The notes: a model not told the origin generated them from the letters alone. A stretch of DNA of 64,000 nt from Candidatus Melainabacteria bacterium 17Bon1m (GCA_032128875.1 JAVLKG010000001.1:128001-192000), one strand, 5' to 3'; shown: positions 6,864 to 25,799, numbered from the stretch's first letter. Translations and numbers: made by a program.

Positions 6864-6936
6864 TTGAGCCTACCGCGGGTTGGTAAGATAGTACCTATAT
6901 ATGGCGGTATGGCTTGACAAATGATTGATTAACTCG

Positions 6937-8954: not shown

Positions 8955-9803
8955 ATGACAGAAAGAAAGTTCGGCTGCACCGGAAGAGATGTTGCCGTAG
9001 TTGGCCAGGGTACTTGGGAAATTGAAAGATCCGAACGAAAAGAGGCTGTAAAAGCCTTGCGCCAAGGGTTGGATCTTGGAATGACTCATATTGATACCGC
9101 GGAAATGTATGGTGCCGGAGAGTCGGAAGAAATCGTAAGCGAAGCAATTGCTGGGCGCCGCGATGAAGTTTTCCTGGTTTCCAAGGTTTTACCTAGCAAT
9201 GCATCGCGCAAAGGCACTATTGCAGCTTGTGAAAAGTCTTTAGCGCGTCTGAAAACAGACCGGCTTGACTGCTATCTTCTGCACTGGCGCGGACACTACA
9301 AGCTGGGCGACACCATCGAAGCATTCGAAGAATTGAAGCAAGCCGGAAAAATTCTTTCCTGGGGTGTCAGCAACTTCGATGAAGATGATTTGGACGAAGC
9401 TTTGGAAATTGCCGGTGAAGGAAAGATAGCGTGCAATCAAGTTCTTTATCACCTGAAAGAGCGCGCAATCGAACATGCTGTAATTCCATGGTGCGAAAAA
9501 CATAACGTAGCTGTCGTTGGTTATAGCCCGTTTGGTAGCAGGGGCGGATTTCCTGCCGCCAATTCTGCCGGGTTTAAAGCATTGACTGAAGTGGCGGAGG
9601 CGCGCTCTGCATCGGTACATCAGATTGCACTGGCATATCTCACCAGGCGACCGTCACTGTTCTCCATTCCAAAGGCCGCAAAAGCAGAACATTCTGCAGA
9701 CAATTCTGTCGCTGGAAATTTGAAGCTGACAAAAGAAGAAATCGATAAAATTGAAACGGCATTTCCGCTCGGCAAGCGTCCCAGTTCGCTGCCGATGATT
9801 TGA
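8955..9803 (+). CDS. Aldo/keto reductase
   Basis: GQGTW, IDTAEMYG, LVSKV, YLLHW, GVSNF, NQVLY and IPKA motifs. Confidence 0.93.
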   Translation: MTERKFGCTGRDVAVVGQGTWEIERSERKEAVKALRQGLDLGMTHIDTAEMYGAGESEEIVSEAIAGRRDEVFLVSKVLPSNASRKGTIAACEKSLARLKTDRLDCYLLHWRGHYKLGDTIEAFEELKQAGKILSWGVSNFDEDDLDEALEIAGEGKIACNQVLYHLKERAIEHAVIPWCEKHNVAVVGYSPFGSRGGFPAANSAGFKALTEVAEARSASVHQIALAYLTRRPSLFSIPKAAKAEHSADNSVAGNLKLTKEEIDKIETAFPLGKRPSSLPMI

Positions 9804-9824
9804 AGCAATACAAAGGAAAACACC

Positions 9825-10814
9825 TTGGGCGTATTTGAATCTGTAGCTGACGCAATCGGCAACACTCCTATCGTAAAAATGAAGCGATTTGGCGCACAGC
9901 AAAATCACAATCACAATCTGTGGGCCAAGCTGGAATATCTCAATCCAGGCGGTTCCGTAAAAGATCGAATTGCGAAAAACATGATCGAGCAAGCGGAGCG
10001 CAAAGGTAAGCTGAAGCCCGGTGGTACCATTATCGAGGCTACAGCCGGCAACACTGGTATCGGTTTAGCAATGCTCGCCGCAATGCGCGGATACAAGCTC
10101 ATCACGATTGTTTCGCAGAAGGTGAGCCAGGATAAAGTAAAACTGTTGAGAACGCTCGGTGCGGAAATTGTAATTACTCCAACCGGCAAGAAGATGGGCG
10201 ATCCGGATCATTTTTTGAGTATCGCCAGGAGATTGACGGAGGAGCATGATGGTTGGTTCGTCGATCAATTCTACAATCCAGACAATGCGCAGGTTCATTA
10301 CGATGTGACTGGTCCTGAAATTTGGGAACAAACTGAGGGTGCGGTCGACGTGATTGTTGCAGGTGCAGGAACCGGCGGCACCTTATCTGGTGCCGGTCGA
10401 TTTTTGAAGGAGAAAAAACCTTCGGTCAAAGTCATTCTCGCCGATCCGGTGGGAAGTATTCTTGCGGATTTATACGATGAAGAGAAAACGACGCCAGCGC
10501 AATACATTGTTGAAGGAATTGGGCAGGATTTTTTGCCGGGCAATTTCCATAAAGCCGTTATTGATTTTGCGATTCGTGTCACTGACGAACAATCAGTTCA
10601 AGCGGCTTATGACTTGATGAAGTTTGAAGGGCTCTTTGGTGGAAGCTCATCTGGATGCATCGCAGCGGCTGCTGCAGCTTGCTGTGTGGATCTTGAAGGC
10701 ACTGGTAAAAATGTACTTGCGATTTTGCCAGATGGTGGAAGAGGTTATATGAGCACCATATATGATGACTCGTGGATCAAAGAGAAATTTCCGAACAAAA
10801 CGTTCGAGCGATAG
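9825..10814 (+). CDS. PLP-dependent cysteine synthase / cystathionine beta-synthase family protein
   Basis: IGNTP, KLEYLNPGGSVKDR, EATAGNTG, GAGTGGT and EGIG motifs. Confidence 0.93.
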   Translation: MGVFESVADAIGNTPIVKMKRFGAQQNHNHNLWAKLEYLNPGGSVKDRIAKNMIEQAERKGKLKPGGTIIEATAGNTGIGLAMLAAMRGYKLITIVSQKVSQDKVKLLRTLGAEIVITPTGKKMGDPDHFLSIARRLTEEHDGWFVDQFYNPDNAQVHYDVTGPEIWEQTEGAVDVIVAGAGTGGTLSGAGRFLKEKKPSVKVILADPVGSILADLYDEEKTTPAQYIVEGIGQDFLPGNFHKAVIDFAIRVTDEQSVQAAYDLMKFEGLFGGSSSGCIAAAAAACCVDLEGTGKNVLAILPDGGRGYMSTIYDDSWIKEKFPNKTFER

Positions 10815-10970
10815 TACGAGCGAAACATCTTTTTCTGCGCTTTTGATTTTGGACAAAGCACAATCTTTGCTTTAACTCCTTATATAGGGTGGCGGCAGCT
10901 TAAGCTCTATGACCGATATATGTGATTGGTCCCGTCTGGATATCTGATCGCCGCGACTTTAGTCTGGACA

Positions 10971-11320
10971 GTTGATCCGGCGCTTGTTAACAGAAAGTGC
11001 TTTGCGATCTCTATGTCTGAAGCGCATCTCTATAATGCCAAGAATGTGATCGTTAAATGATCTATGGGGTAGTTGATCGTATGCGCTGACGCGATAAACT
11101 AATTGCATAACCGGTGAGCACGTCACTTAAATGTTGAGTGCTTTGAGCCGAGGGGCATTTGTGGAAACTTCAGATCGGCGTCGATCGGAAACCGTAGCAA
11201 AAAGCCCGCACCACGTGAAGGACTGACTGAAGCGTGATGAAATACTGAGCTCTAATGCAAAGAGCAGTCAGGCAGTAGTAAGAATACCAGCGCAGAGCAA
11301 TCTGGCTGGTATTTTTATTT
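10971..11320 (+). ncRNA. Multicopy ~350-bp element, copy 1: upstream box, TATAAT (11031-11036), ~275-nt structured RNA candidate and terminator
   Basis: Near-identical to 12663-13011, 14301-14649 and 24079-24427. Stems show compensatory changes between copies and no reading frame is conserved in all four. Confidence 0.75.
11283..11320 (+). terminator. Intrinsic terminator of element copy 1
   Basis: AATACCAGC-GCAGAGCAATCTG-GCTGGTATT followed by a T-tract. Confidence 0.85.
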
Positions 11321-11367
11321 GCGCCCAACGGACGGCGCGCAGCCTTCAGACTCCATTTCGAAATCGG

Positions 11368-11515
11368 CCGCAGCGCCGGACTCCAGACGGCTTTTTCTGG
11401 GAGCGCCAGCTTCCAGCCGGCTTTTCTGGGAGCGCCAGCTTCCAGCCGGCTTTTTCTGGGACCGTCGGCTTCCAGCCGGCTTTTCCTGGGAGCGCCGGCG
11501 GCTCGCCGGCTTTTC
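11368..11515 (+). repeat. Tandem REP-like 29-30 bp units (TGGGAGCGCCRGCTTCCAGCCGGCTTTT), 4 clear and 1 degenerate
   Basis: Units start at about 11368, 11398, 11427, 11457 and 11487, each with an imperfect GCCGGC palindrome and no unique spacers. Confidence 0.85.
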
Positions 11516-11564
11516 TATAATGGAGAAGGAAACGCCTCTTTATTAGGCTGCCGGTCCACAATCT

Positions 11565-12599
11565 ATGTCGCTTCTCCTTCAGATTTCACTAGCGTTCGTT
11601 TTTCTTCTTTGGATACTTCCAATAATCCGAGGAGTTGAAATCTGTTTTCGCTCCATAACTCGTTTGTTAGGCGACTCCGCCGATCCCGATAGAGGTGCTC
11701 CTGCGCTCCTTGTCCCAAAGGAAGTTGAGCGCGATGTGCTTCGCCCTATCCCCTTCACTGATCATCGCTACCAGGAGCTCAGGAATGATGTGATTCGAGC
11801 TCGTGCATTGCTTAATCGTTCGCTGGATACTCAACTCGAACTTGAAGAACAGATTCGCGAACTGGAAGAAATCCCTCAGCATCAGGAAGCCGCAGTTACA
11901 GCAGATGCCATTGCAAGACTTCGGAAGGAAATCGATGAGCTTGCTCCACAGCACGACGCTCTGCGCGCTGAGCTGGCTGATAAGGAAAGCGCACTGCAGA
12001 AGGCTTATCCATTGAGACCGATGAGAGGCGCTGCTACAAAAACTGCATCTGCCGTCAAGAAAGAAAACCAAGCCCGTATTGCTAAGGCTGTTCAAACCAA
12101 AATTGACTTTGATGTCAAAAGACGCGAAGAATTTGCGAAAGAAACAAGGCATCGTGCTCAGATTCTTGCGCACATGCGCCTTGTCATTGACGCAGTTGAG
12201 AAACATGCAGTTGGTAAGAGGCGCATCGAAGAGTTGAAAGTCACGATGGAGACTTCGCACCGAGAGATTGAGACAATTAACGCTGTTCTCGCCGAGTGGG
12301 AGTCGAATGAAGATTTCCTATCAGAGAAGTTGGCGACCTTTGAAACCGGCAATGAAGCATTGCAGCGGAGAGTTGAAGAAGCCGCTCAGCGAGACGATCT
12401 CGAGGCTTTGGATGAGGCAGAGATGTTGCTGCTTGAACGTCAGGTTCAAGCCAGTAAGTTCAAGCTTTTGCTGGAAGACTCAATAAAGCAGGGGACCGAG
12501 TTGAAGGAATTGGGCAATAGATTCGAGAAAGTTCGCATTGCTATTTTGAAGAAGATTGTGGCAATTGAACCTAACTATCTCGATTTTAGGGTTGATTGA
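11565..12599 (+). CDS. Membrane-anchored coiled-coil protein, PspA/IM30-like (paralog 1)
   Basis: N-terminal hydrophobic helix and heptad-rich body. Shares the Y..L....IR.RALL.R and LR.EL..KE.....AY motifs with 13154-14236. Confidence 0.7.
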   Translation: MSLLLQISLAFVFLLWILPIIRGVEICFRSITRLLGDSADPDRGAPALLVPKEVERDVLRPIPFTDHRYQELRNDVIRARALLNRSLDTQLELEEQIRELEEIPQHQEAAVTADAIARLRKEIDELAPQHDALRAELADKESALQKAYPLRPMRGAATKTASAVKKENQARIAKAVQTKIDFDVKRREEFAKETRHRAQILAHMRLVIDAVEKHAVGKRRIEELKVTMETSHREIETINAVLAEWESNEDFLSEKLATFETGNEALQRRVEEAAQRDDLEALDEAEMLLLERQVQASKFKLLLEDSIKQGTELKELGNRFEKVRIAILKKIVAIEPNYLDFRVD

Positions 12600-12662
12600 T
12601 ATCGTTGGACTGGTCACGATGCTGTGTTTTTATATCCGATCGCCGTGGCGGTAGCTGCGCTT

Positions 12663-13011
12663 GTTGATCCGGCGCTTGTTAACAGAATTCGAATTGCGAT
12701 CACTATGTCTAAAGCGCATCTCCAAAATGCCAAGAATGGGATCGTTAAATGTACTGTGGGGTAGTTGAACGTATTTGCAAACGCGATAAACTAATTGCAT
12801 GAACGGTGAGCACGTCACTTAAATGTTGAGTGCTTTGAGCCGAGGGGCTTTGCGGAAACACTAGATCGGCGTCGATCGGAAGCAGTAGCAAGAAGCCCGC
12901 ACCACGTGAAGGACTGACTGAAGCGTGATGAAATACTGAGCTCGGATGCAACGAGCAGTCAGACAGTAGTAAAAATACCAGCGCAGAGCAATCTGGCTGG
13001 TATTTTTGTTT
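12663..13011 (+). ncRNA. Multicopy structured element, copy 2
   Basis: Begins GTTGATCCGGCGCTTGTTAACA, has -10-like CAAAAT, and ends in the terminator AAAAATACCAGC...GCTGGTATTTTT. Confidence 0.75.
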
Positions 13012-13049
13012 TTGCTGATTTGCGCGGATGCGCTGCCCGAGAGAGTGGC

Positions 13050-13107
13050 CGGAGCGTCAGCTTCCAGCCGGCTTTTGCCTGGGAGCGCCGGCGGCTCGCC
13101 GGCTTTT
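13050..13107 (+). repeat. Two REP-like units of the same family as 11368-11515
   Basis: GGAGCGTCAGCTTCCAGCCGGCTTTT and TGGGAGCGCCGGCGGCTCGCCGGCTTTT, followed by TATAATGGAG as in the first cluster. Confidence 0.85.
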
Positions 13108-13153
13108 ATAATGGAGTCAGGAACGCCATTGTGAAGGTTGTCGGAGCCTCTGT

Positions 13154-14236
13154 ATGTCGCCACTCCTGGGAATCTCACTAGCGATAATTGTTTTGCTCTG
13201 GGTGATTCCGCTTGCTTGGGCGGTTTCAACTGGCATACGCGCACTACCTCGTTTGGTCGGGGAGTTGATTGATTTCTTCAGAGACTTTTCCAAGCTCAGG
13301 AAAATGTCTGAAGGCGAAAGACACCTCTTGCGCAAAGAGTTACAGCTGGAAGCCGACTATCAGAATCTTCAGGATGAACTGATCCGTATCCGAGCTCTTC
13401 TTGCACGTACAATCGCTTTCAAAAAAGAGCTACTTACAAATATTCAGTCATTGACCAACGAAATATTGGAGAGCGATGCAATTCGAAAGTGCTCAGACAA
13501 TGAGCACCTTTCTGCCCGTGAACGACTTAAAGCGCTTGAACGAGAAGCTGCTGAAGTTGAATTTAAGATTGCTTCTCTTCGTTTTGAGCTGGAAGAGAAA
13601 GAGCTAGGAGTAATGCGAGCTTATTCTAGAAAACAAGTTGTGATTGCCAAAGACAAAGCTGACAATGCTACCGAGAAGGCGCGCAAAATTCTCGACCTTG
13701 TGGAAGCACAACATGCTGAAAATCCGTTACTTAAAATGGAGTTGAAGGTTCGGGCTCGGGAGGCTTCGGCTGATGCAGGTCTTGGTTCTGCAGTTTCTCA
13801 ACAGGCTCTTTCAACCTTTGTTGAGGCAGTTTTTCGCTTGCACATTGAATCTATGCCCTTGGAAAACCTCCAGAAGCTGATTCAACCAATCAATGATGTT
13901 GTAGGAGAGGTCACATCACTTGTGCTGTACCGAGAAGCTATCGAAGAGGTTTTGTCAATGCAGATGAGGTCTTCGGAAGCCGATCTACAGTCTTGGAAGC
14001 ATAAGGCAGCTGAAGCTGCCGCAGAAGATAGACAGTTGCTCATTAAGCAAGCAGAGGTCAATCAGCTTGAGTGCGAAGTTCAGATCGCAAAACAAATCCG
14101 TCAGCTCAAAGAGGAAAGAAACAAATTGGCTGATCTCAGACTCCTTGAAATGAAACTCGCAAAACGAAAAGACGAGATTCTGATGAAGATCGCCGACCTT
14201 CAGGGTGGAGATATGGACTTTTCGCCTGGCGAATAG
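13154..14236 (+). CDS. Membrane-anchored coiled-coil protein, PspA/IM30-like (paralog 2)
   Basis: TM anchor, then LQDELIRIRALLARTIA, KMELKVRAREA and WKHKAAEAAAEDRQLLIKQA, which resemble PspA/Vipp1 helices. Confidence 0.72.
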   Translation: MSPLLGISLAIIVLLWVIPLAWAVSTGIRALPRLVGELIDFFRDFSKLRKMSEGERHLLRKELQLEADYQNLQDELIRIRALLARTIAFKKELLTNIQSLTNEILESDAIRKCSDNEHLSARERLKALEREAAEVEFKIASLRFELEEKELGVMRAYSRKQVVIAKDKADNATEKARKILDLVEAQHAENPLLKMELKVRAREASADAGLGSAVSQQALSTFVEAVFRLHIESMPLENLQKLIQPINDVVGEVTSLVLYREAIEEVLSMQMRSSEADLQSWKHKAAEAAAEDRQLLIKQAEVNQLECEVQIAKQIRQLKEERNKLADLRLLEMKLAKRKDEILMKIADLQGGDMDFSPGE

Positions 14237-14300
14237 TGGTTGTGCACATGTGTGTTTCCCCTGTTCTAATAGTCTGATCGTTGTAGTGTTAGCTGTGTCT

Positions 14301-14649
14301 GTTGATCCGGCGCTTGTTAACAGAATTCGTTTCGCTATCGCTATGTCCGAAGCACATCTCGATAATGCCAAGAATGAGATCGTTAAATCATCTCTGGGGT
14401 AGTTGAACGTATTCGCAAAGGCGATAAACTAATTGCATAACCGGTGAGCACGTCACTTAAGTGTTGAGTGCTTTGAGCCGAGGGGCTTTGCGGAAACACT
14501 AGATCGGCGTCGATCGGAAACCGTAGCAAGAAGTCCGCAACACGTGAAGGACTGACTGAAGCGTGATGAAATACTGAGCTCGAATGCAACGAGCAGTCAG
14601 GCAGTAGTAAGAATACCAGCGCAGAGCAATCTGGCTGGTATTTTTGTTT
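14301..14649 (+). ncRNA. Multicopy structured element, copy 3
   Basis: Same boundaries and stems as the other copies, -10-like GATAAT, terminator at 14612-14649. Confidence 0.75.
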
Positions 14650-14785
14650 GCTGTGGTCGCCTTAAGAAGAGTATACTCACGGCAATCAAGCAGTCTGCCT
14701 CTCACTTGACTTTGTTGGTGAATGGTTCAGCAATGTTTTCTCATTTTTTTGTCTTGCAGGGAACATTGGCGCGTCCATCGGCTCT

Positions 14786-17700
14786 TTGATTGAGGAAACT
14801 CTCTTCACTGACCGGTGGTGGATGAAGCAGGTATCGCTTCCAATTTTTGCTCTCTTAGAAGGTGGAAACAGGCAGGAATTCTCTGCTGAAGAGCTGCCTT
14901 TGCGGGCTGAGCTGTTCAGCGCCGACCAGATGGAGCAGCATGGCAGGACCCTTGCCGGACTTCATAAGGTTGAATTTGGGCGAGCGCCAGATCAGCTGTT
15001 GGCTCGCCTGGCAGAAAACGAGCAGGTTTTGACTTATGCCTGCAATATGCTCACAGAAGCCGTCAATGACAACAGACGCATTACCTCTGCCGGTGAATGG
15101 CTTCTAGACAATTTCTACCTGATCGAAGAGCAGATAAGAACAGCCAAGAGGCACTTACCGAAGGGCTATAGCCGGGAATTACCTCACCTGATCAGTGGTG
15201 TGTCAGTGGGATTTCCTCGGGTCTATGACATCGCGCTGACCAATGTTTCGCATGGCGATGGAAAGTTGGACCCGGATAGCCTCGATCGTTTCGTGGCTTC
15301 TTACCAGACTGTCACAGAGTTGAAGATTGGCGAACTGTGGGCTATCCCGATTATGTTGCGGTTGGCTCTCATTGAAAACTTGAGAAGAGTCGCAGTGCGA
15401 ATGGTTATTCATATGAATGAGCATTTGCAGGCTGGTATCTGGGCCGACAAAATGATCGATGTAGCGACCAGTGATCCCAAAAGTTTGATTCTCGTGATCG
15501 CAGATATGGCGCGCTCCAATCCACCGATGGTAAGCGCTTTCGTCTCGGAGTTAGCTCGAAAGCTGCAAGGGCAAAGTTCGTCTCTGGCTTTAGGGCTGAC
15601 ATGGATGGAACAGCGTTTGGCAGAAGCCAGCACCTCCATTGAACAAATGGTACAGGCTGAAGCGCAAATTCAAGCTGCTGACCAAGTTTCGATCAGCAAC
15701 AGCATTGGCTCGCTTCGCTTTCTGGGAGCCATGGACTGGCGGAAGTTTGTTGAAGGGCAAAGCGTCGTTGAAAAAACTCTTCTTGAAGATCCGTCTGGTG
15801 ACTACGGCAAGATGGATTTTTCCACTCGTGACGATTACCGACACGTTGTTGAAAAGCTGTCAAAGAAATGTCGGTTGTCCGAAAAAGAGATTGCGCTTGC
15901 TGCGGTACAACTGGCGAAGAGCAATAAAAATGGTGATGCGAGAAGTAAGCACGTCGGTTTCTATCTGATTGATAAGGGACTGCCGGAACTTGAGAAAACG
16001 GTCGCAGTCAGATTTTCTCTCTGGGATTTGTGCAGACAGTTTGGACGCAGATATTCGCTCATCTCCTATCTGGCTCCAATATTTCTTATTACTTTTGCAG
16101 TCACCGCTGCACTTGCATACGCTGCACATGCGCATGGTGAATCCAAACAGTTTGTCGCAATTACCGCCGTAGTTACATTCGTCAGTGCCAGTCAGTTAGC
16201 CGTATCCCTGGTGAATTGGCTGGCGACCCTTCTGATTCCATCCAAACCGCTTCCGAAGCTTGATTACTCCAAAGGAATTCCTCGCGAGGAACGAACTTTA
16301 GTAATCGTCCCCACGATGATCTCGAGCGTTAGCAATATTGAAGATCTCGTAGAAGCCCTCGAAGTTCGCTTTCTTGCCAACCGAGACGAGAACTTGAGCT
16401 ATGCCTTGCTGACGGACTTTCTCGATGCTGACTCCGAATCGTTACCGCAAGACGAACTCTTGGTGAAAACGATAACCAGCAAGATCAATGAATTGAATCA
16501 GAATTACAAGTCCGGTCCGCGCGATATCTTCTTTCTCTTTCATCGGCCTCGTTTATTCAATCCAGCCTCAAATGTTTGGATGGGCTATGAACGCAAGCGG
16601 GGAAAATTGTCCGCGCTGAATAGTGTTCTTCGTGGAGGCAGTGCAGATTGCTTTTCAACTATTGTCGGCGACTACAAGTCGCTGGTTGGCACCAAGTTTG
16701 TAATCACGTTAGACACCGATACACAGCTTCCGCGTGATGCCGCCCGGCAATTTGTCGGCGCGATGATGCATCCTCTGAATAGAGCGCATTTCGATGAAAA
16801 CAGAAAATTGGTAACCAGTGGATATGGGATTCTTCAACCTCGCGTTGGAGTTTGCCTGCCCGGCACAAGTCTGTCTCGCTATGCGGCTCTGCAGGGAAAT
16901 GATCCTGGTATAGATCCTTATACTCGGGCTGTTTCTGATGTATACCAGGATGTGTTCTATGAGGGCTCATTCATCGGTAAAGGTATTTACGATGTTGAGA
17001 TTTTTGAAAAAACGCTAAGTGATCGTTTCCCTGAAAACTGCATCCTAAGCCACGATTTGCTCGAAGGCTGTTACGTGCGTTCTGGACTTTTAAGCGACGT
17101 CCAACTTTACGAAGAGTATCCCTCCGGTTACAGTGCAGACGTCGCCAGGCGTCATCGCTGGATTCGTGGTGACTGGCAGATCATTTCATGGTTAGGCGGG
17201 GATGTTCCTGTTTTAGGAAAGAGAAGGCAAAAAAATCCAGTTTCCTTTCTATCGCAGTGGAAGATCTTTGACAATTTACGCCGAAGCCTTGTACCTTCAT
17301 CGCTAGTTACAATGTTGATTGTGGGCTGGGTTTCACCGTCACCATCTTGGATTTGGACTGCATCAGCCTTGGCGATCCTTTTCATTCCTTCAATCGTCTC
17401 TTCTTTGTTGGAGTTAGTACGTAAGCCTGAAGACGTTCTCTGGAATCAGCATATTGCAAGCGCTCTGAGTTCTTCTGCGCGCAATTTGGGGCAAGCGATG
17501 TTCAATCTCGCGTGTCTTCCGTACGAAGCAACATACAGTCTTGATGCCATCTTTCGAACTCTGTTTCGCATGACTGTGACGAAAAAACATTTACTGGCTT
17601 GGTATCCGTCGAGTGAAGCCAATCGCAAACAACGTCGAGATTTCGTGGGCATTTATTCCCAAATGTGTAGCGCACCCACAATTGCATTAGGTGTTCTTGC

Positions 17701-20700
17701 TTATGTGATTGCGCAAAAGCCATTAGATATTGTTGCTGTTGGACCGATAGTCTTGCTCTGGATGTTTTCGCCGGCGATTGCCTGGTGGTTGAGTCGTCCG
17801 CTAGCAGTTAGTGGTTCCAATCTGACTGACGAACAACGTATTTTTCTTCGCAAAATTGCTCGTAGGACATGGGCTTTTTTCGAGACATTTGTAACGGCTG
17901 AAGACCATTGGCTGCCACCTGATAACATGCAAGAGTTGCCTATACATGTGGTTGCACATCGCACGTCGCCAACCAACATGGGAATGTCTTTATTGGCCAA
18001 CCTCGCGGCTTACGATTTTGGCTTTATTCAGTCGGGCGAATTGGTTGAGCGCACGTACAGCACCCTGGTGACAATGCGTGCTCTAGATAGTTATAGAGGG
18101 CATCTCTATAACTGGTATGACACTATAACGCTTAAACCGCTCAAGCCCTTGTACGTGTCCACTGTAGACAGCGGCAATCTCGCTGGACACCTTATCACAC
18201 TGAAAGCTGGACTCTTGGAGCTGTTTGATGAGCCAGTAATCTCCGTGCAGGTCTTTTCTGGACTACAAGATACGCTTGACGTGCTCAAACAGACTGTCGG
18301 GGAGAAGATTGTTATCCCTGAATTAACCACATTTGATGACCTTCTCAAGACAGCGAAACTTGACCCTCCTACCACAGTCACTGGTCTTCATGAATGGTTC
18401 GAGCAACTTCAGAAATGCGCTGAAGAAATAACCATTCGCGTTGGCGAAACACCGGGCACGGAGATAAAGCATTGGGTGCAGGCTCTTAAACGTCAGGTGT
18501 CTGCTGCGTTGATGGAGCTGACTTTGTTGATTCCGTGGACGGCGTTGCCGGGCTTGAATACTGTGTCTGAGAGGATCCCGCAGATTGAACAGACTCCTAC
18601 TTTGCGAGAACTGTCAACAATATACGACAGCCTGTCTCCGATCATTCAGAAGAGTTGTACGTCTGACCGTCCAATGCAAGAGCTAAAATGCTTCGCCGAA
18701 TTGTTGGCGCTCCTTTCCGAAGCCAGTCGTCGCGCAAAGGAGCGCATCGGCATTATTAGTCAACTTGTGATGCATGTCGAAGAACTAGCCCAAATGGAAT
18801 ATGACTTTCTTTATGACAAAAGCAAAAGGTTGCTGGCGATCGGTTATAACGCCGATGAGAAAAGAGTGGATGCCAGCTACTACGATTTGCTCGCGTCCGA
18901 AGCGCGTTTGTGTAATTTCGTCGCGATCGCACAGGGGCAGTTGCCGCAGGAAAGCTGGTTTGCTCTGGGACGGTCGTTAACAACGGCGGGTGGCAAGCCC
19001 GTGTTGTTCTCCTGGTCTGGCTCCATGTTTGAATATTTAATGCCATTGCTGGTAATGCCAAACTATAAAAATACTCTGCTAGATCAAACATACCATGCGT
19101 CAATTGAGAGACAAATTGAATACGGTAATCAGCGAAATGTGCCATGGGGAATTTCCGAGTCAGGGTATTTCGCGGTTGATGCGCATCTCAACTACCAGTA
19201 TCGTGCCTTTGGTGTTCCCGGGTTAGGCTTAAAACGTGGATTGGCGCAAGATCTGGTTATTGCGCCATATGCGACGGTGCTGGCATTAATGGTGGTGCCT
19301 GATGAGGCCTGCGAAAATTTGGAGAGGTTGACGTCTGAAGGTTTCGCAGGATCATACGGATTTTATGAGGCTGTTGACTATACTGCCGCGCGAATTCCGC
19401 GCGGACACAGCAGAGCAATTATTCAATCGTATATGGCGCACCATCAGGGCATGAGCTTTCTCTCCCTTGCTTACACTCTGCTCGATCAACCTATGCAACG
19501 GCGCTTTGTGAGCGATCCATCATTTCAATCTACTCTACTTTTGCTGCAAGAGAGAATACCTAAGGCGACGGCGTTCCACTCGCAAACGGCAGAAACCGCA
19601 GAGGTGCGCTTCGGGTCCGCGGCTGATGAAGCGCCGGTCCGTTTCTTTAGCAGTCCTAATACGACAGTTCCCGAAATACAGCTACTATCCAACGGTCGAT
19701 ATCATGTGATGATGACGAACGCGGGCGGCGGCTACAGCCGCTGGAAAGACCTGGCTATAACCAGATGGCGTGAAGATACAACGCGCGACAACTGGGGAAC
19801 GTTTTGTTTTATTCGGGACGTATCAACCGGTGAATTCTGGTCGACAGCATATCAGCCAACTCTCAAGCAACCCGATAGATACGAAGCAATTTTCTCTGAG
19901 GCACGTGTCGAGTTCCGCAGGCGCGACTTTGATTTCGACACACATACCGAAATCGTCGTTTCTTCAGAGGACGATATTGAGTTGCGAAGAGTACGCATAA
20001 CAAATCGCTCCCGGTCACGCAAGACGATTGATGTGACGAGCTATGCTGAAGTTGTGCTTGCAAATCCTAATCATGATAATGCGCACCCTGCATTTAGTAA
20101 TTTATTTGTGCAAACGGAGCTTATCGATCAGGGTCATGCAATTCTCTGCAACCGCCGACCGCGATCTGCGAATGAGCATCAGCCGTGGATGTTCCATTTG
20201 ATGTCTGTTCATGGTGCCACCACAGGAGATGTGTCACGAGAGACAGATCGTGCGAAGTTTATTGGCCGTGGAAATTCACTCTCTAACCCTTCTGCTATGA
20301 ACACTCCGGGACTGCTATCGAATACCCAAGGTTCTGTACTTGATCCTGTCGTTTCGGTTCGTTATCAAATAGTTCTTGACCCTGAAAAGTCCGCGATAGT
20401 AGACATAGTTACCGGTGTTGCCGACACCAGAGAAACTTGCATTAGCTTGGTCGAGAAATATCAGGATAGAGGGCTTGCTGATCGTGTTTTTGATTTGGCC
20501 TGGACACACAGTCAGGTTGTGTTGCGTCAGTTGAACGCTAATGAAGCGGACGGTCAACTTTATGCTCGCTTGGCGAATTTAGTGGTCTATGCAAGCAGTA
20601 CACTGCGCGCCGACGCTTCCGTGATAATCAAAAATCGGCGTGGTCAGTCCGATTTGTGGGGATATGCAATATCCGGCGATTTGCCGATTGTTTTGCTGCA

Positions 20701-23533
20701 GATCCGTGACCCTAATAACATTGACCTTGTCAGACAAGTTGTACAAGCGCATGCGTACTGGCGTCTCAAGGGGCTTGCCGTTGATCTCGTTATTTGGAAT
20801 GAAGATAAAGCGGGATATCGACAGCTGATTCAAGACCAGATCATGGGCTTGATCGCTGGTGGCGTTGAGGCTAGTCTGATAGACAGGCCCGGTGGAATAT
20901 TTGTCCGTCAAATTGAACAAATTTCGATTGAAGATCGTATTTTGTTGCAAACGGTCGCCCGCGCAATTATCAAAGACAGCAATGGAACTCTCCCTGAGCA
21001 GCTTAATCGGCGCAGTGTGCGGGAAGTTCGGATGCCGGCTCTAACTCCTGTGCGCACGCATCAGGCTGAAAGCAAATCTAGTGTTGTTCCGCAAAGAAGT
21101 GATTTGATATTTTTCAATGGTTTGGGAGGCTTTACTTCTGACGGTCGAGAATATGTAATTAGCACTGCGCACGGTCACGTGACTCCGTTGCCTTGGGTAA
21201 ATGTGCTGGCTAATCAGTTCTTCGGCTCCGTTGTCTCCGAGAACGGACTTTCTTATACCTGGCTTGAAAATGCCCATGAATTCCGACTCACTCCTTGGCA
21301 CAACGATCCAATCACAGATGAGTCAGGAGAAGCATTTTATGTCCGCGACGAAGAGACCGGTCACTTCTGGTCACCAACCCCGATGCCTGTGCGCGGTGCT
21401 ACTCCGTACACAACACGTCACGGTTTCGGGTACAGTGTATTCGAGCACACCGAGGGCGGTATCACAACGGAATTGTGTGTGTTCGTTGTCCTTGATGCGC
21501 CAGTGAAGATATCTGCACTTAAGGTCCGCAACAATTCGGGGCGTGCAAGAAAATTGTCTGCAACAGCCTATTTCGAATGGGTATTCGGTGATCTGCAACC
21601 TAAGACCGTCATGCATGTTAGCACCGAGATTGATACAAAGACTGGAGCCCTGTTCGCGCGTAATCCATATAACAGAGAATTCGGAGACCGGATCGCTTTT
21701 GTAGACGTCGACGACATCATGCGTTCTGTAACCGGGGATCGAGCGGAATTTCTTGGGCGCAACGGAAGTTTGCGCAATCCCGCAGCAATGAGTAAGCAAA
21801 AACTGTCGGGTCGAGTTGGCGCTGCACTTGACCCTTGTGGTGCTGTGCAGGTTGCATTCGATCTTCAAGACGGTGAAGAGAGAGAGATTATTTTCCGGCT
21901 TGGTATCGGACGCGACGAAAGCGATGCCAATAATTTGATCAATCGCTTTCGCGGCAGCAAAGCCAGAAACGATTCATACGAAGCGCTTTGCCAGTATTGG
22001 AAACACACTCTGGGCGCACTCAACGTGCAGACACCCGATCCTGCATTAAACATGCTGGCAAATGGCTGGTTGCTATACCAGACGATTGCCTGCCGCCTGT
22101 GGGCTCGAAGCGGCTACTATCAGTCCGGTGGTGCTTTTGGTTTTAGAGATCAGCTTCAAGATGCTATGGCACTAGTGCACACAGAACCATTGCTTTTGCG
22201 AAAGCAATTGCTCTTATGCGCTTCGCGCCAGTTCGTGGAAGGCGATGTTCAGCACTGGTGGCACCCTCCAACAGGACGTGGTGTTCGTACGCGTATTTCG
22301 GACGATTACCTCTGGCTGCCCCTGGCTGCTTGTCGCTATGTAATGATGACCGGTGACACAGGTGTTCTCGACGAGCAAACGCATTTTCTTACCGGCCGCC
22401 CAGTCAATCCTCAAGACGATTCCTATTATGATTTGCCGGGGCGTTCGCAAGAAACAGCGAGCCTTTATGAACACTGCCAGAAAGCCATCCTGAATGGCTT
22501 GAAGTTTGGTGTTCATGGTTTGCCGTTGATGGGAACAGGCGATTGGAACGACGGTATGAATCTCGTCGGCGAACACGGGGAGGGCGAGAGTGTTTGGTTA
22601 GGTTTCTTCCTTCATGAGGTTTTGCGAAGATTTGTTCAATTGGCACGTCTTCGGAAAGACGAAGCATTTGCGAGTCGCTGTGAAGCGGAAGCCGCGCAGT
22701 TGAGGCAACACATTGCAAAAAGTGGATGGGATGGGGAATGGTATCGTCGCGCCTATTTTGATGACGGAACACCACTAGGTTCTTCCACAAACCCTGAATG
22801 CAAAATCGATTCTATTTCGCAAAGCTGGTCAATCCTGTCCGGCGCTGGAGAAATTGAACGTTCTAAGAAGGGCATGCAATCTGCGTATCAGCATCTAGTT
22901 CGCCACGAAAGTTCTTTGATTCAACTTCTTGATCCACCCTTTGATAAATCTGAGTTGAATCCTGGCTACATCAAAGGCTATGTTCCTGGTGTTAGAGAAA
23001 ACGGCGGACAGTACACCCATGCAGCAATTTGGTTGACAATGGCGTTTGCTGCACTTGGAGATAGCAAACGAGCCTGGCAGCTGTTCTCGATGATAAATCC
23101 GGTAAACCATGCGCTCGATCCCAACAGTATGCAGACCTACAAAGTAGAACCATATGTGGTGGCGGCGGACGTCTATGCTGTTTCGCCGCATACTGGGCGA
23201 GGTGGGTGGACTTGGTACACAGGTTCAGCAAGCTGGATGTATCGCCTGATTATCGAATCAATCTTAGGTATCCGCCTGCAAGTTGACCAGCTTCGCTTTC
23301 AACCCTGTTTGCCGGAAGAATGGCCTGAATTTAAAATCCACTACCGCTATCGCGAGACTGTTTATCACATAACAGTGATTCATAGAGCTGACAACGAAAA
23401 GCATCAGACGGTTACACTGAATGATGTAGTCCAACCTGATGGCGCGATAAAACTGGTCGACGATCGACGCGAGCATCTTGTTGTCGTGAGTGTTGGTCGC
23501 AGCTCGGAACGTACTTTTTCACCAACAGCCTGA
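14786..23533 (+). CDS. ndvB: Cyclic beta-1,2-glucan synthase (Cgs/NdvB/ChvB type: GT84, glucoamylase-like and GH94 phosphorylase domains)
   Basis: 2915 aa with WMGYERKRGKL, TLDTDT, SHDLLEG, RHRWIRGDWQ, YDLLASEARL, QSGGAFGFRDQLQD, DWNDG and RENGGQYTHAA. Exact start uncertain. Confidence 0.95.
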   Translation: MIEETLFTDRWWMKQVSLPIFALLEGGNRQEFSAEELPLRAELFSADQMEQHGRTLAGLHKVEFGRAPDQLLARLAENEQVLTYACNMLTEAVNDNRRITSAGEWLLDNFYLIEEQIRTAKRHLPKGYSRELPHLISGVSVGFPRVYDIALTNVSHGDGKLDPDSLDRFVASYQTVTELKIGELWAIPIMLRLALIENLRRVAVRMVIHMNEHLQAGIWADKMIDVATSDPKSLILVIADMARSNPPMVSAFVSELARKLQGQSSSLALGLTWMEQRLAEASTSIEQMVQAEAQIQAADQVSISNSIGSLRFLGAMDWRKFVEGQSVVEKTLLEDPSGDYGKMDFSTRDDYRHVVEKLSKKCRLSEKEIALAAVQLAKSNKNGDARSKHVGFYLIDKGLPELEKTVAVRFSLWDLCRQFGRRYSLISYLAPIFLITFAVTAALAYAAHAHGESKQFVAITAVVTFVSASQLAVSLVNWLATLLIPSKPLPKLDYSKGIPREERTLVIVPTMISSVSNIEDLVEALEVRFLANRDENLSYALLTDFLDADSESLPQDELLVKTITSKINELNQNYKSGPRDIFFLFHRPRLFNPASNVWMGYERKRGKLSALNSVLRGGSADCFSTIVGDYKSLVGTKFVITLDTDTQLPRDAARQFVGAMMHPLNRAHFDENRKLVTSGYGILQPRVGVCLPGTSLSRYAALQGNDPGIDPYTRAVSDVYQDVFYEGSFIGKGIYDVEIFEKTLSDRFPENCILSHDLLEGCYVRSGLLSDVQLYEEYPSGYSADVARRHRWIRGDWQIISWLGGDVPVLGKRRQKNPVSFLSQWKIFDNLRRSLVPSSLVTMLIVGWVSPSPSWIWTASALAILFIPSIVSSLLELVRKPEDVLWNQHIASALSSSARNLGQAMFNLACLPYEATYSLDAIFRTLFRMTVTKKHLLAWYPSSEANRKQRRDFVGIYSQMCSAPTIALGVLAYVIAQKPLDIVAVGPIVLLWMFSPAIAWWLSRPLAVSGSNLTDEQRIFLRKIARRTWAFFETFVTAEDHWLPPDNMQELPIHVVAHRTSPTNMGMSLLANLAAYDFGFIQSGELVERTYSTLVTMRALDSYRGHLYNWYDTITLKPLKPLYVSTVDSGNLAGHLITLKAGLLELFDEPVISVQVFSGLQDTLDVLKQTVGEKIVIPELTTFDDLLKTAKLDPPTTVTGLHEWFEQLQKCAEEITIRVGETPGTEIKHWVQALKRQVSAALMELTLLIPWTALPGLNTVSERIPQIEQTPTLRELSTIYDSLSPIIQKSCTSDRPMQELKCFAELLALLSEASRRAKERIGIISQLVMHVEELAQMEYDFLYDKSKRLLAIGYNADEKRVDASYYDLLASEARLCNFVAIAQGQLPQESWFALGRSLTTAGGKPVLFSWSGSMFEYLMPLLVMPNYKNTLLDQTYHASIERQIEYGNQRNVPWGISESGYFAVDAHLNYQYRAFGVPGLGLKRGLAQDLVIAPYATVLALMVVPDEACENLERLTSEGFAGSYGFYEAVDYTAARIPRGHSRAIIQSYMAHHQGMSFLSLAYTLLDQPMQRRFVSDPSFQSTLLLLQERIPKATAFHSQTAETAEVRFGSAADEAPVRFFSSPNTTVPEIQLLSNGRYHVMMTNAGGGYSRWKDLAITRWREDTTRDNWGTFCFIRDVSTGEFWSTAYQPTLKQPDRYEAIFSEARVEFRRRDFDFDTHTEIVVSSEDDIELRRVRITNRSRSRKTIDVTSYAEVVLANPNHDNAHPAFSNLFVQTELIDQGHAILCNRRPRSANEHQPWMFHLMSVHGATTGDVSRETDRAKFIGRGNSLSNPSAMNTPGLLSNTQGSVLDPVVSVRYQIVLDPEKSAIVDIVTGVADTRETCISLVEKYQDRGLADRVFDLAWTHSQVVLRQLNANEADGQLYARLANLVVYASSTLRADASVIIKNRRGQSDLWGYAISGDLPIVLLQIRDPNNIDLVRQVVQAHAYWRLKGLAVDLVIWNEDKAGYRQLIQDQIMGLIAGGVEASLIDRPGGIFVRQIEQISIEDRILLQTVARAIIKDSNGTLPEQLNRRSVREVRMPALTPVRTHQAESKSSVVPQRSDLIFFNGLGGFTSDGREYVISTAHGHVTPLPWVNVLANQFFGSVVSENGLSYTWLENAHEFRLTPWHNDPITDESGEAFYVRDEETGHFWSPTPMPVRGATPYTTRHGFGYSVFEHTEGGITTELCVFVVLDAPVKISALKVRNNSGRARKLSATAYFEWVFGDLQPKTVMHVSTEIDTKTGALFARNPYNREFGDRIAFVDVDDIMRSVTGDRAEFLGRNGSLRNPAAMSKQKLSGRVGAALDPCGAVQVAFDLQDGEEREIIFRLGIGRDESDANNLINRFRGSKARNDSYEALCQYWKHTLGALNVQTPDPALNMLANGWLLYQTIACRLWARSGYYQSGGAFGFRDQLQDAMALVHTEPLLLRKQLLLCASRQFVEGDVQHWWHPPTGRGVRTRISDDYLWLPLAACRYVMMTGDTGVLDEQTHFLTGRPVNPQDDSYYDLPGRSQETASLYEHCQKAILNGLKFGVHGLPLMGTGDWNDGMNLVGEHGEGESVWLGFFLHEVLRRFVQLARLRKDEAFASRCEAEAAQLRQHIAKSGWDGEWYRRAYFDDGTPLGSSTNPECKIDSISQSWSILSGAGEIERSKKGMQSAYQHLVRHESSLIQLLDPPFDKSELNPGYIKGYVPGVRENGGQYTHAAIWLTMAFAALGDSKRAWQLFSMINPVNHALDPNSMQTYKVEPYVVAADVYAVSPHTGRGGWTWYTGSASWMYRLIIESILGIRLQVDQLRFQPCLPEEWPEFKIHYRYRETVYHITVIHRADNEKHQTVTLNDVVQPDGAIKLVDDRREHLVVVSVGRSSERTFSPTA

Positions 23534-23623
23534 TTTCACTGGTTGTTGCTGCCGTAGATCCGATTGAATCCGCTGTCGTTGGAGTTTCTTAGCATTCGCC
23601 GGACCTAGCTAGTAAGCGTAGAT

Positions 23624-23659
23624 GAATACCGGCGCAGAGTACTCCGGCCGGTATTTTTG
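23624..23659 (+). terminator. Terminator hairpin related to the 3' end of the multicopy element
   Basis: GAATACCGGC-GCAGAGTACTCCG-GCCGGTATTTTTG, with a G-C pair where the element has A-T. Confidence 0.75.
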
Positions 23660-23804
23660 ATCTAGCGTTCAATTCGGACTGCTTTGGCGCAGGCGCGCAC
23701 GGTCAGTCGCAAAACGATAAATGTAGGAAATGGATTTTTCGGCGTAAGAAAGGCCTCAGTGCAGCTGCAATAACGCTCTTTCTAGTGGCTTCGGATTGTC
23801 CAGA

Positions 23805-23888
23805 TTAATGCAAGAAGCCGAACAACCACAGAAGGGCAATAATGCCGGTCGGAACGCCGCAAATCCACAAAATGAATGCCTTACCCAT
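23805..23888 (-). CDS. 27-aa small membrane protein MGKAFILWICGVPTGIIALLWLFGFLH
   Basis: Below the ORF-track cutoff. ATG preceded by GGAGTAAATAGGA, almost entirely hydrophobic, with a W..GVP motif. Confidence 0.7.
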   Translation of the reverse strand: MGKAFILWICGVPTGIIALLWLFGFLH

Positions 23889-24078
23889 GATCCTATTTAC
23901 TCCAATTTTGTCAGTGATTTTCCGTACACCAGCGAGACTGGGCGCCTGTGGGAAAAGTTCCTTCTGAAAACCGGGAACCCTGGGAAGTCAGGATGGGCGG
24001 GGTATAGCGGTATCAGTAGCGGGGTATATCTAATCGATCTCGCGAACGTATACGATCGGCGCTTTTGCTGACTCGCCT

Positions 24079-24427
24079 GTTGATCCGGCGCTTGTTAACA
24101 CAACACGTGCTGCGATCGCTATGTCCAAAGCGCATCTCGATAATGCCAAGAATGGGATCGTTAAATCATCTATGGGGTAGTTGAACGTATTCGCAAACGC
24201 GATAAACTAATTGCATAACCGGTGAGCACATCACTTAAGTGTTGAGTGCTTTGAGCCGAGGGGCTTTGCGGAAACACTAGATCGGCGTCGATCGGAAACC
24301 GTAGCAAGAAGCCCGCACCACGTGAAGGACTGACTGAAGCGTGATGAAATACTGAGCTCATTTGCAATGAGCAGTCAGGCAGTAGTAAGAATGTCACCGC
24401 AGAGCAATCTGGGTGGCATTTTTGTTT
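24079..24427 (+). ncRNA. Multicopy structured element, copy 4
   Basis: Same boundaries as the other copies. The terminator stem is changed to AATGTCACC/GGTGGCATT but still pairs. Confidence 0.75.
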
Positions 24428-24447
24428 GTTTGCTTTTGGGAGGCGTC

Positions 24448-25362
24448 ATGGAAGTTGGTGTAATCGGGCTCGGCAGTATGGGTTTCGCGATAGCTTCGCA
24501 CATTCTGGTGGCAGGGCACGAAGTTACTGTCTACAACCGCACCGAGGAGAAAGCACATCCTTTAATGGAAGATGGCGCAATGTTCTCGCATGATCCTGCC
24601 GGTGCTGCGCAGGGAGACGTGGTCATCACGATGCTATCCGACGATCACGCTGTCGAGAGTGTGGTGTTTGGAACAACAGACGCTTCAGGTGGCACTCAGA
24701 ATGAAGCGGTCGACGGATTGCTAATGCATCAAGCTCCGGATTGTATACATGTTTCGATGAGCACCATCGGCGTTCAGCTGGTGAAACGGCTCGAGCGTGA
24801 GTACGCTGCTAAAGGAAAGCAATTTATTTCCGCGCCTGTGATGGGGCGTCCAGATGTCGCTGAGCGCGGAGAATTAGTTGTTATGGCATCTGGAAGCAAA
24901 GCTGCAATTGAGAAGTGTCAACCTGTGTTTGATGTAATTGGCAGAATTACTCACGTGGTTGGTGACAGCCCTGTGCAAGCTGCAACGATAAAGCTTGCAG
25001 CAAATTTTATGCTTAGCTCGATGATAGAGACACTCGGCGAGGCTTTCGCACTCGTGCGTAAGAATGGAGCGGACCATCACAAGTTCTTAGACATCATGGC
25101 GAAGGATTTTTTCAAATCACCCATATATGAAAAATACGGAGCAATTATTGCGCACGAAAAATTTGGTGGTGGTGCGTTCACCGTGAAGTTGCAAGAAAAG
25201 GATACGCGTTTAGCAGTTGCTGCGGCGATTGAATCGCAAGTTCCGATGCCGCTGTTATTTGCAATTGAAAACGCTTTTCTCAGTTCTATCGGACAAGGTA
25301 AAGGCGATATGGACCCTTGTGCTATTGCGCAACTTGCCGCCGAGAATGCCGGTTTGCGTTGA
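24448..25362 (+). CDS. NAD(P)-dependent beta-hydroxyacid dehydrogenase (3-hydroxyisobutyrate/6PGDH-like)
   Basis: GVIGLGSMG, YNRT, SMSTI, APVMG and KLAAN motifs. GGAGG precedes ATG 24448; the track start at 24367 lies inside the element. Confidence 0.92.
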   Translation: MEVGVIGLGSMGFAIASHILVAGHEVTVYNRTEEKAHPLMEDGAMFSHDPAGAAQGDVVITMLSDDHAVESVVFGTTDASGGTQNEAVDGLLMHQAPDCIHVSMSTIGVQLVKRLEREYAAKGKQFISAPVMGRPDVAERGELVVMASGSKAAIEKCQPVFDVIGRITHVVGDSPVQAATIKLAANFMLSSMIETLGEAFALVRKNGADHHKFLDIMAKDFFKSPIYEKYGAIIAHEKFGGGAFTVKLQEKDTRLAVAAAIESQVPMPLLFAIENAFLSSIGQGKGDMDPCAIAQLAAENAGLR

Positions 25363-25412
25363 TTGTTTTCTTTGAATGCCTTTGATGTTTTTCTTTCAAG
25401 TAAAATCGATTT

Positions 25413-25793
25413 ATGCCCGGACCTAAAACAATCACGTTGTACAGACCTGTTGGCGCTAAAGAGTTAGAGCTCATCGCTGAAGCTAAATATTTGGCGTTTC
25501 CTCCTCGTCTCTTCTTCCAGCCTATTTTTTATCCTGTAATGAATGAAGAGTATGCGACGCAAATCGCGCGCGACTGGAACACCAAAGATGAGGCGTCTGG
25601 ATACGTTGGTTATGTGACCAAGTTCGAAGTTAGCAGCGAATACCTATCCAAATTCGAAGTTCAAGTCGTTGGTGCCGCGGATGTGCACCAAGAATATTGG
25701 ATTCCAGCCGAAGACTTGGAGAGTTTCAACAAAAATATTGTCGGCAAAATCGAAGTGATTTCGACGTTTGTTGGAGATAAAGCTAAGCAGTAA
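25413..25793 (+). CDS. Conserved protein of the family often labelled 'ADP-ribosylation/crystallin J1'
   Basis: LYRPVG.KEL, FPPRL..QPIFYPV, YA.QIARDWN and EYWIPAE motifs. Confidence 0.75.
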   Translation: MPGPKTITLYRPVGAKELELIAEAKYLAFPPRLFFQPIFYPVMNEEYATQIARDWNTKDEASGYVGYVTKFEVSSEYLSKFEVQVVGAADVHQEYWIPAEDLESFNKNIVGKIEVISTFVGDKAKQ

Positions 25794-25799
25794 TGATGT

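Follow-up and report, generated by a model that had tools for sequence, protein, structure and literature searches.

Repeated copies of the orphan RNA poplar-1 in an Obscuribacterales-like bacterium and a proposed extended model of its gene

The RNA family poplar-1 (Rfam RF03041) is a catalogued orphan RNA without an assigned function, filed by Rfam as 'Gene; sRNA'. Its copies often lie near one another and, to our knowledge, it has been known only from metagenomes of decaying poplar wood, with no classified organism attached to it. Here we describe four repeats of ∼349 nt that belong to this family. They lie between positions 10971 and 24427 of a 64,000-nt stretch of DNA from Candidatus Melainabacteria bacterium 17Bon1m (GCA_032128875.1, JAVLKG010000001.1:128001-192000), which was analysed as a whole and is called the window below, with positions counted from its first letter. 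The family originates in the survey published by Weinberg et al. 2017 (PMC5737381), whose main text carries no mention of poplar. In the literature searched, the name poplar-1 was found only in a preprint on drinking-water metatranscriptomes (10.1101/2025.10.18.683149), which places poplar-1 among the RNAs enriched in intracellular RNA of drinking water; no paper joining Obscuribacter with a small RNA (sRNA) was found in that literature.

In gene layout, the repeats recall RsmX/Y/Z, with their GacA box, and Qrr1-5, with their LuxO sites: these too are near-identical multicopy genes with their own terminators and with conserved sequence at least 100 nt upstream. Unlike them, poplar-1 is far more structured, the dyad symmetry of its upstream box is weak, no sigma-54-type promoter is evident, and neither CsrA nor Hfq was found in the genome. 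Poplar-1 also resembles OLE, ROOL and GOLLD, large self-assembling 'ornate' RNAs of bacteria, in being an orphan RNA limited to its lineage; it has numerous invariant nucleotides outside helices, a pseudoknot, and a self-complementary loop by which copies could be joined. At ∼190 nt, terminator excluded, it is much smaller than those RNAs, and it is multicopy; its assembly into larger particles is a possibility. The reading that we favour, with a probability of roughly 55%, is that each repeat is a stand-alone poplar-1 gene, made of upstream control DNA and a ∼213-nt RNA with a kink-turn (k-turn), a pseudoknot and a terminator, and that this RNA would act in trans.

Family membership was established by cmscan against Rfam with gathering thresholds. 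All four copies matched RF03041 well above its cut-off of 110.5 bits (scores in Table 1), and the matches spanned model positions 1-141 of 141, uncut. The four repeats are members of the known family poplar-1, not of a new class. An initial annotation, made from the sequence alone, had put them forward as an undescribed class of RNA, with a significant Rfam match named as one result that would overturn the idea, and one Rfam search was enough to settle this strong candidate. When copy 3 was scanned permissively, up to E = 10, poplar-1 and one chance snoRNA match were all that appeared; no weaker Rfam identity emerged, and a likeness to the cyanobacterial RNA Yfr2, raised by the GGAAAC motifs, was not supported by that scan.

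A repeat search over 9000-26000 of the window returned one family consisting of four direct copies, and a MAFFT alignment over ∼350 columns agreed with it. The ungapped units of that search (10943-11242, 12635-12934, 14273-14572 and 24051-24350) were 67-100% identical to the reference copy. Each copy starts with a 22-nt box, invariant in all four, and ends with the T-run of a terminator, at boundaries where the initial annotation had also placed them, and all four fall between open reading frames (ORFs), as it had said. Pairwise identity among the copies is 90.3-93.1% over ∼349 nt, and the distances from copy to copy are 1692, 1638 and 9778 nt. Copies 3 and 4, which had been credited with about 15 substitutions, differ at 24 of 349 positions, divided equally between the upstream 136 nt (12) and the 213-nt RNA part (12). 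In the latter, several substitutions compensate for one another, for example 14582 with 14590 in helix P4 and paired changes in the terminator stem.

The whole genome and its relatives were searched, as had been suggested with the first description. The genome (7.55 Mb in 35 contigs, 93% complete) contains eight poplar-1 copies, four in the window, two on contig C10 and one each on C2 and C4, and a whole-genome profile search found no degenerate extra copy below E = 1. Further copies were present in 34 of the 36 genomes from the same family (f1) and in all three from a sister family of the same order (f2), the latter with scores just under the cut-off. None was found in 21 genomes from other families of the class, in 150 sampled genomes from 29 other families of the phylum or in 14 control genomes, and plasmid and phage collections gave no match. 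The closest named relatives of a protein encoded in the window come from 'Cyanobacteria bacterium SZAS LIN-3' (60% identity) and 'Candidatus Obscuribacterales bacterium' (51%), whose genomes hold seven poplar-1 matches (four above the cut-off) and six, respectively. On this basis we place the host among Obscuribacterales-like bacteria, members of the non-photosynthetic sister lineage of cyanobacteria; poplar-1 is now tied to two families of such bacteria.

Other genera carry tight tandem arrays of at least four poplar-1 genes at a spacing of 500-1400 nt (G017:C1:2647150-2649153, G003:C4:58091-61514 and contig ends of G036), and in G017 four copies lie within 1.9 kb. Copy numbers taken from assemblies (up to 12) are probably underestimates, as many copies sit at contig ends. 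A metagenome scan gave at least 120 contigs with the poplar-1 core motif, again often at contig ends; the contigs listed were all at least 1 kb long and so provide no transcript ends.

We built a structural alignment of 71 distinct copies from 33 genomes, which covers the Rfam model together with 55 nt on its 5′ side and 62 nt on its 3′ side. In its consensus structure 95.9% of 3746 cells were paired, as against 31-39% when the partners were slid by 1-3 columns, and 43 of the 53 pairs had changed on both sides. The structure was written from this same alignment and the sequences are related, so that shuffle figures overstate the case; more weight belongs to the slid controls and to the many types of pair seen. 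The helices of the Rfam model (P1, P1a, P2, P3 and P4) were 82-100% paired, with most pairs changed on both sides, the inner stem of P4 being the weakest (81.9%). All helices covary, including three that are new. With compensatory changes maintaining the pairing among wider homologues, and no ORF that accounts for the element, the initial view of it as a non-coding RNA stands.

The RNA is predicted to begin ∼35 nt 5′ of the Rfam model, which would give a transcript of ∼213 nt rather than the ∼275 nt first estimated. Within this 5′ extension, CGGU, ∼5 nt from the predicted start, forms a new 4-bp helix with GCCG in the unpaired 5′ tail of the model (100% paired; outer pair types CG 58, GC 10 and AU 2). 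Between the strands of this helix lies a hairpin, P0 (95.4% paired, three of four pairs covarying), and the strands at the junction of the two read U-G-A-G and C-NNN-G-A-G. We applied the k-turn definition given in PMC8191799, where poplar-1 is not among the RNAs named. Positions G2n, A1n, A2b and G3b:U3n were present in 71 of 71 copies, G1b and the 3-nt bulge each in 70, and C:G at -1b:-1n in 69. The features of the definition, namely a helix ending in C:G, a 3-nt bulge, tandem G:A/A:G pairs and a second helix, are thus kept in 69-71 of the 71 copies; the likeness is one of sequence and covariation, and the kinked geometry is a prediction. The k-turns of riboswitches fold through ions or tertiary contacts, and the poplar-1 k-turn, if it folds, would do so by the same means.

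The loop of P3 pairs with the 3′ internal loop of P4 in a 6-bp pseudoknot, with pair types such as AU 40 and GC 24 (Table 1). Downstream, the minimum free energy (MFE) structure contains an intrinsic terminator, a 17-bp stem including A-U pairs and then a U-run, and all 11 stem pairs examined for change covary. Terminator and body form together in the MFE structure, in which 8-9 unpaired nt separate the terminator stem from P4, and the predicted transcript of copy 3 folds with z = -2.97, one of 200 shuffles being as good. Nearly the entire body of ∼190 nt is constrained, with covariation in ten helices and with internal loops that do not vary between the two families; GGAAAC, occurring twice around P2, GAAAUAC and GUAG are the invariant nucleotides of loops and junctions. 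In 51 of the 71 copies the whole of P2 is a self-complementary 14-mer, and in all 71 a self-complementary tetramer (GCGC, GCGU, ACGU or GUAC) falls within the central 4-5 nt of its loop. Such a loop is unable to pair inside its own hairpin and may therefore join two RNAs, an idea that we offer only as a lead.

The opening ∼136 nt of the repeats behave differently and are best described as probable control DNA, a conserved promoter region rather than part of the RNA fold. RNAalifold on 60 copies returned no consensus pair in the 120 nt upstream, and the single-sequence fold of the region was no better than its shuffles (z = +0.98; 162 of 200 as good), on which grounds a transcribed, folded upstream part was rejected. 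Several blocks are kept across genera, and partly into the sister family: a far box, ∼CCrGCGCTTGTTAAy, then TTAAATG, then TGGGGTAsTT. The last of these adjoins a weak -35 (TTGAAC, TTCCAT or TTTAAA), which is followed by 16-17 variable nt and a hexamer. All 71 copies have this hexamer, TAnnnT, in one of 14 different forms; its distance to the first helix is 10-12 nt in 69 of them, and TGn precedes it in 25. A fixed site with so many forms, at times with TGn, is the pattern of a -10 element rather than of an RNA motif. In two copies an extra 11 bp is inserted between GGGGTA and the -10; as this corresponds to one helical turn, a separate factor site fits better than a part of the -35. In this genome, seven of the nine occurrences of the far box and seven of the 12 occurrences of GGGGTA-N21-25-TAnAnT are at poplar-1 genes. 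The 22-nt box itself lies ∼115-136 nt upstream of the predicted transcript start.

From these elements, transcription would start ∼7 nt after the -10 and stop at the intrinsic terminator (Table 1), the start site being a prediction, and the upstream blocks would bind a dedicated activator. Other ideas about this region fared poorly. The box makes a weak palindrome, its symmetry barely exceeding that of shuffles; and promoters of the NtcA, sigma-54 and sigma-B types, compared by eye, failed on unconserved spacing or on an unconserved second half-site. The octamer GCGATCGC, observed 239 times where ∼115 would be expected, does not stand out as enriched, since other palindromes behave much alike.

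Hints of expression came from RNA-Seq runs X1-X4, all from one sample, which contain 92-93% of the sampled words; they were available as contigs, which can show neither starts nor levels. Ten further RNA runs (X5-X14) contained small shares of the sampled words only. In X1, three contigs in copy 3 had depths of 563 (14421-14530), 573 (14504-14570) and 187 (14553-14620), with flanking contigs at 21.3 and 18.5, and the ratios between copy 3 and its flanks (13020-14800) were similar in X2-X4. Each high-depth piece occurs as a whole string once in the genome, and its 31-mers one to four times; pieces so nearly unique mean that copy number cannot explain a 9-27-fold excess of depth. The conserved upstream part (14299-14420) is on a low-depth flank contig, and a contig of X4 with a depth of ∼980 is made up of 14437-14519 plus six letters from outside the window, that is, it breaks exactly at the predicted +1.

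A further trace was found in a virus collection. Positions 1-150 of the IMG/VR contig L151 (2581 nt) match poplar-1 with 119 bits; the genes that come next encode the RNA-dependent RNA polymerase and S-domain coat protein of a small RNA virus. The match begins inside P0 and ends inside P4, without the 3′ strand of the pseudoknot and without the terminator. In four other contigs of the same virus (polymerase 96-100% identical), viral sequence runs through the junction and poplar-1 is absent, which led us to reject poplar-1 as a virus element: L151 is a chimera produced in metatranscriptome assembly, or else a one-off, defective recombinant that acquired an abundant host RNA. Taken with the drinking-water preprint, this chimeric contig suggests that poplar-1 RNA is abundant in nature. 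Three other viral pattern matches (L150, L152 and L153) were due to chance, and the 164-kb record behind L150 has no poplar-1 match.

Table 1. Coordinates in the window of the four poplar-1 repeats and of the parts of copy 3; transcripts, promoter regions and structural elements are predictions.
Feature	Position	Strand	Details or basis
Copy 1, conserved promoter region, predicted non-transcribed	10971..11106	+	Box 10971-10992; TGGGGTAGTTGA 11065-11076; -10 TAAACT 11095-11100
Copy 1, predicted poplar-1 transcript, ∼214 nt	11107..11320	+	Rfam match 11142-11282, 143.8 bits; T-run 11312-11320
Copy 2, promoter region	12663..12798	+	Box 12663-12684; TGGGGTAGTTGA 12757-12768; -10 TAAACT 12787-12792
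Copy 2, predicted poplar-1 transcript, ∼215 nt	12799..13013	+	Rfam match 12834-12973, 148.7 bits
Copy 3, promoter region	14301..14436	+	Box 14301-14322; TTAAAT 14383-14388; TGGGGTAGTTGA 14395-14406; -10 TAAACT 14425-14430
Copy 3, predicted poplar-1 transcript, 213 nt	14437..14649	+	Rfam match 14472-14611, 145.7 bits; fold z = -2.97; contig depths in RNA runs
Copy 3, 5′ extension beyond the Rfam model	14442..14480	+	Mapping; helix and per-position counts
Copy 3, new helix	14442-14445 with 14477-14480	+	Helix counts
Copy 3, sheared G.A/A.G positions	14446-14447 and 14475-14476	+	k-turn signature
Copy 3, hairpin P0	14448-14471	+	Helix counts
Copy 3, 3-nt bulge	14472-14474	+	k-turn signature
Copy 3, hairpin P2, wholly self-complementary 14-mer with self-complementary tetraloop GCGU	14502..14515	+	Helix counts
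Copy 3, pseudoknot	P3 loop 14552-14557 with 14595-14600 inside P4	+	6/6 pairs changed on both sides; 97.9% of cells paired
Copy 3, intrinsic terminator	14614..14649	+	Stem 14614-14640, GCAA loop, T-run 14641-14649; MFE and covariation
Copy 4, promoter region	24079..24214	+	Box 24079-24100; TGGGGTAGTTGA 24173-24184; -10 TAAACT 24203-24208
Copy 4, predicted poplar-1 transcript, 213 nt	24215..24427	+	Rfam match 24250-24389, 150.0 bits

What these repeats share with the Rfam family are helices P1-P4 with their covariation, the match over the whole model and the clustering of copies. Beyond the Rfam model, we add ∼35 nt at the 5′ end (helix, hairpin and k-turn signature) and a pseudoknot, for which a nested model has no score; beyond the Rfam entry, a conserved terminator, a conserved promoter region of ∼136 nt and a host lineage. 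The outcome is an improved gene model for the family as a whole, to which a 5′ module with the k-turn signature, a pseudoknot, a terminator, promoter blocks and a host lineage have been added. Constructs designed from the 141-nt Rfam model are without one strand, the 5′ one, of the k-turn and might misfold. A predicted full length of ∼213 nt, together with the control region, should ease the study of this orphan RNA, and the promoter blocks provide a handle for seeking its regulator and the signal behind it.

On the reading proposed here, the RNA would fold into a 5′ helix and a hairpin joined by the k-turn, the four Rfam helices with their invariant internal loops, and the pseudoknot between the P3 loop and P4. 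A body so fully constrained, with invariant loops, a k-turn and a pseudoknot, points to a defined three-dimensional shape made for binding and is less like a seed-type antisense RNA. Poplar-1 would accordingly be expected to work in trans, stoichiometrically, by binding a partner, a view that we hold tentatively and at somewhat less than even odds. The partner could be a protein, a small ligand or, by way of the self-complementary loop of P2, a further poplar-1 RNA; neither short antisense pairing nor control of the adjacent gene would be involved, and many copies under one dedicated type of promoter would yield much RNA fast. More speculatively, poplar-1 could be a small 'ornate' RNA machine and no conventional regulatory sRNA: the k-turn and the pseudoknot would give it a compact core with invariant loops, the P2 loop would join two or more copies into an RNA-only or RNA-protein particle, and this particle would serve a ligand or reaction specific to Obscuribacterales, its synthesis coming in bursts driven by an activator at the upstream blocks; we regard this as a long shot.

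Poplar-1 could instead be a base-pairing sRNA, in which the single-stranded GGAAAC (twice) and GAAAUAC pair with messenger RNAs and alter their translation or stability, the copies acting additively as in other multicopy sRNAs. A stand-alone gene that has a promoter and a terminator to itself, present in many copies and in tandem arrays in other genera, without a common neighbour gene and labelled as an sRNA by Rfam, is what one would look for in such a regulator. The pattern of conservation speaks otherwise, as constraint over nearly the whole ∼190-nt body is unusual where mainly a short seed is kept, and the invariant stretches sit in internal loops and junctions. Moreover, Hfq was not found, and exact 12-mers of the RNA recur elsewhere in the genome only once or twice, which by our own estimate is about chance. 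We consider base pairing unlikely.

A cis-acting leader, that is, a riboswitch or attenuator sharing its promoter with the downstream gene and setting read-through by its fold or by a ligand, was judged from the neighbouring genes. The initial annotation, which also allowed for a large cis-regulatory leader, had each copy upstream of a plus-strand gene, and this is true in the window (four of four copies) and for seven of the eight copies in the genome; it does not hold as a family trait. Among the 71 copies, the downstream ORF was co-directional in 37 and opposite in 29 of the 66 called, with another poplar-1 downstream in three and too little flank in two, and the distance to the next ORF ranged from ∼0 to 424 nt. 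The genes after the eight copies of this genome have no function in common: they encode two paralogous hypothetical proteins, a 2,915-aa GT2/GH94 protein, a 3-hydroxyisobutyrate-dehydrogenase-like enzyme, a 109-aa hypothetical protein, a TauE exporter and a dUTPase, and a POT transporter gene converges on the C2 copy. No recurring neighbour protein was found within 1.5 kb, the largest real cluster comprising six genomes; the only larger one, a candidate for a conserved neighbour, was the antisense translation of the element itself.

Also in favour of a leader is copy 4, where the dehydrogenase-like gene seems to begin just past the RNA, with a likely ATG at 24448 and GGGAGG at 24437-24442, ∼20 nt beyond the T-run (the mechanical ORF start, 24367, would be inside the RNA); this join recurs in two other genomes of the genus (L016 and L020). 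The k-turn and pseudoknot, too, are frequent in riboswitch aptamers. The terminator stem, by contrast, lies outside the conserved fold and does not compete with it, no alternative pairing being evident, and tandem arrays in other genera, with 500-900 nt from copy to copy, lack intervening genes. Unrelated downstream genes, near-random orientation, arrays and a non-competing terminator favour a stand-alone, trans-acting RNA, and a cis leader seems to us improbable.

The initial annotation had envisaged an RNA of ∼275 nt, of an undescribed class, transcribed from a promoter formed by the GTTGATCC...TTAACA box and a GATAAT-like -10, with a start near 11043. The box is indeed invariant in the four copies and the hexamers TATAAT, CAAAAT, GATAAT and GATAAT are where they were said to be, and the self-contained, multicopy gene with its own promoter region and terminator that it proposed agrees with what we find. 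In other genera, however, the GATAAT position varies freely; of the supposed ∼275 nt of stems, the last ∼213 nt fold and the part before them does not, the stretch up to 14436 having neither a conserved nor a stable fold; and all copies match RF03041. That 14299-14420 falls on the low-depth contig is a weak hint in the same direction, as contig depth is an average. We give this longer model very little credence. Least credible of all is a selfish or mobile repeat, or a protein encoded on the reverse strand: the copies are numerous and often at contig ends, and stop-free antisense frames cluster across 25 genomes, but any conserved DNA gives such a 'family' when translated, compensatory changes keep the helices even among the copies in this genome, no terminal inverted repeats or transposase were seen nearby, and plasmid and phage collections are without a match.

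Several observations weigh against a stand-alone gene of the kind that we favour. A simple sigma-70 scan and a pattern scan flagged neither the proposed promoter nor the terminator, the promoter having eight of 12 consensus matches where the scan threshold is nine; the -35 is weak, the role given to GGGGTA and the box is a guess, and the dyad symmetry of the box is 76.0%, against 72.9% in shuffles. The RNA ends are predictions; the RNA runs are contigs of one sample, and their libraries also contain contigs of more than 100 kb, so DNA may be present in them. The count of ORF orientations comes from a crude ORF caller, and the co-directional gene that follows seven of the eight copies fits a leader as well. 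At copy 4 the gap is too short for the downstream gene to have a separate promoter, so read-through must feed it. Candidate protein partners were not found in the 93%-complete genome: no L7Ae-family protein was found, CsrA (PF02599) gave no match where control genomes were positive, and neither did Hfq (PF17209), of which a divergent form could be missed.

Between copies 3 and 4 lies a plus-strand ORF of 2,915 aa (14786-23533) with GT2, glucoamylase-like and GH94 regions (E down to 4e-173), an architecture that we take to be that of cyclic beta-1,2-glucan synthases; the distances between poplar-1 copies elsewhere in the genus suggest that other genomes share this layout. The plus-strand ORFs at 11565-12599 and 13154-14236, between copies 1 and 2 and copies 2 and 3, are full-length paralogues (27% identity, E = 2e-19). 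Both begin with a hydrophobic stretch at the N-terminus, the rest being charged and repetitive with a coiled-coil look by eye, and no Pfam family was assigned to them apart from a sub-threshold PspA/IM30 match in the second; relatives were found in five genomes only. Poplar-1 and the paralogue gene seem to have undergone tandem duplication as one unit. Close by on the upstream side of the cluster, 6925-8928 (plus strand) encodes a 667-aa Ser/Thr protein kinase with TPR repeats.

Downstream of copy 1, at 11372-11515, we noted about five tandem units of 30 nt, and downstream of copy 2 a single unit (13087-13103). Each consists of a G+C-rich hairpin, GCCGGC..GCCGGC, followed by TTTT, and is terminator-like; a strict pattern finds 14 in the genome. 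In the RNA runs these units have a high summed depth and many loose ends, as for a dispersed repeat.

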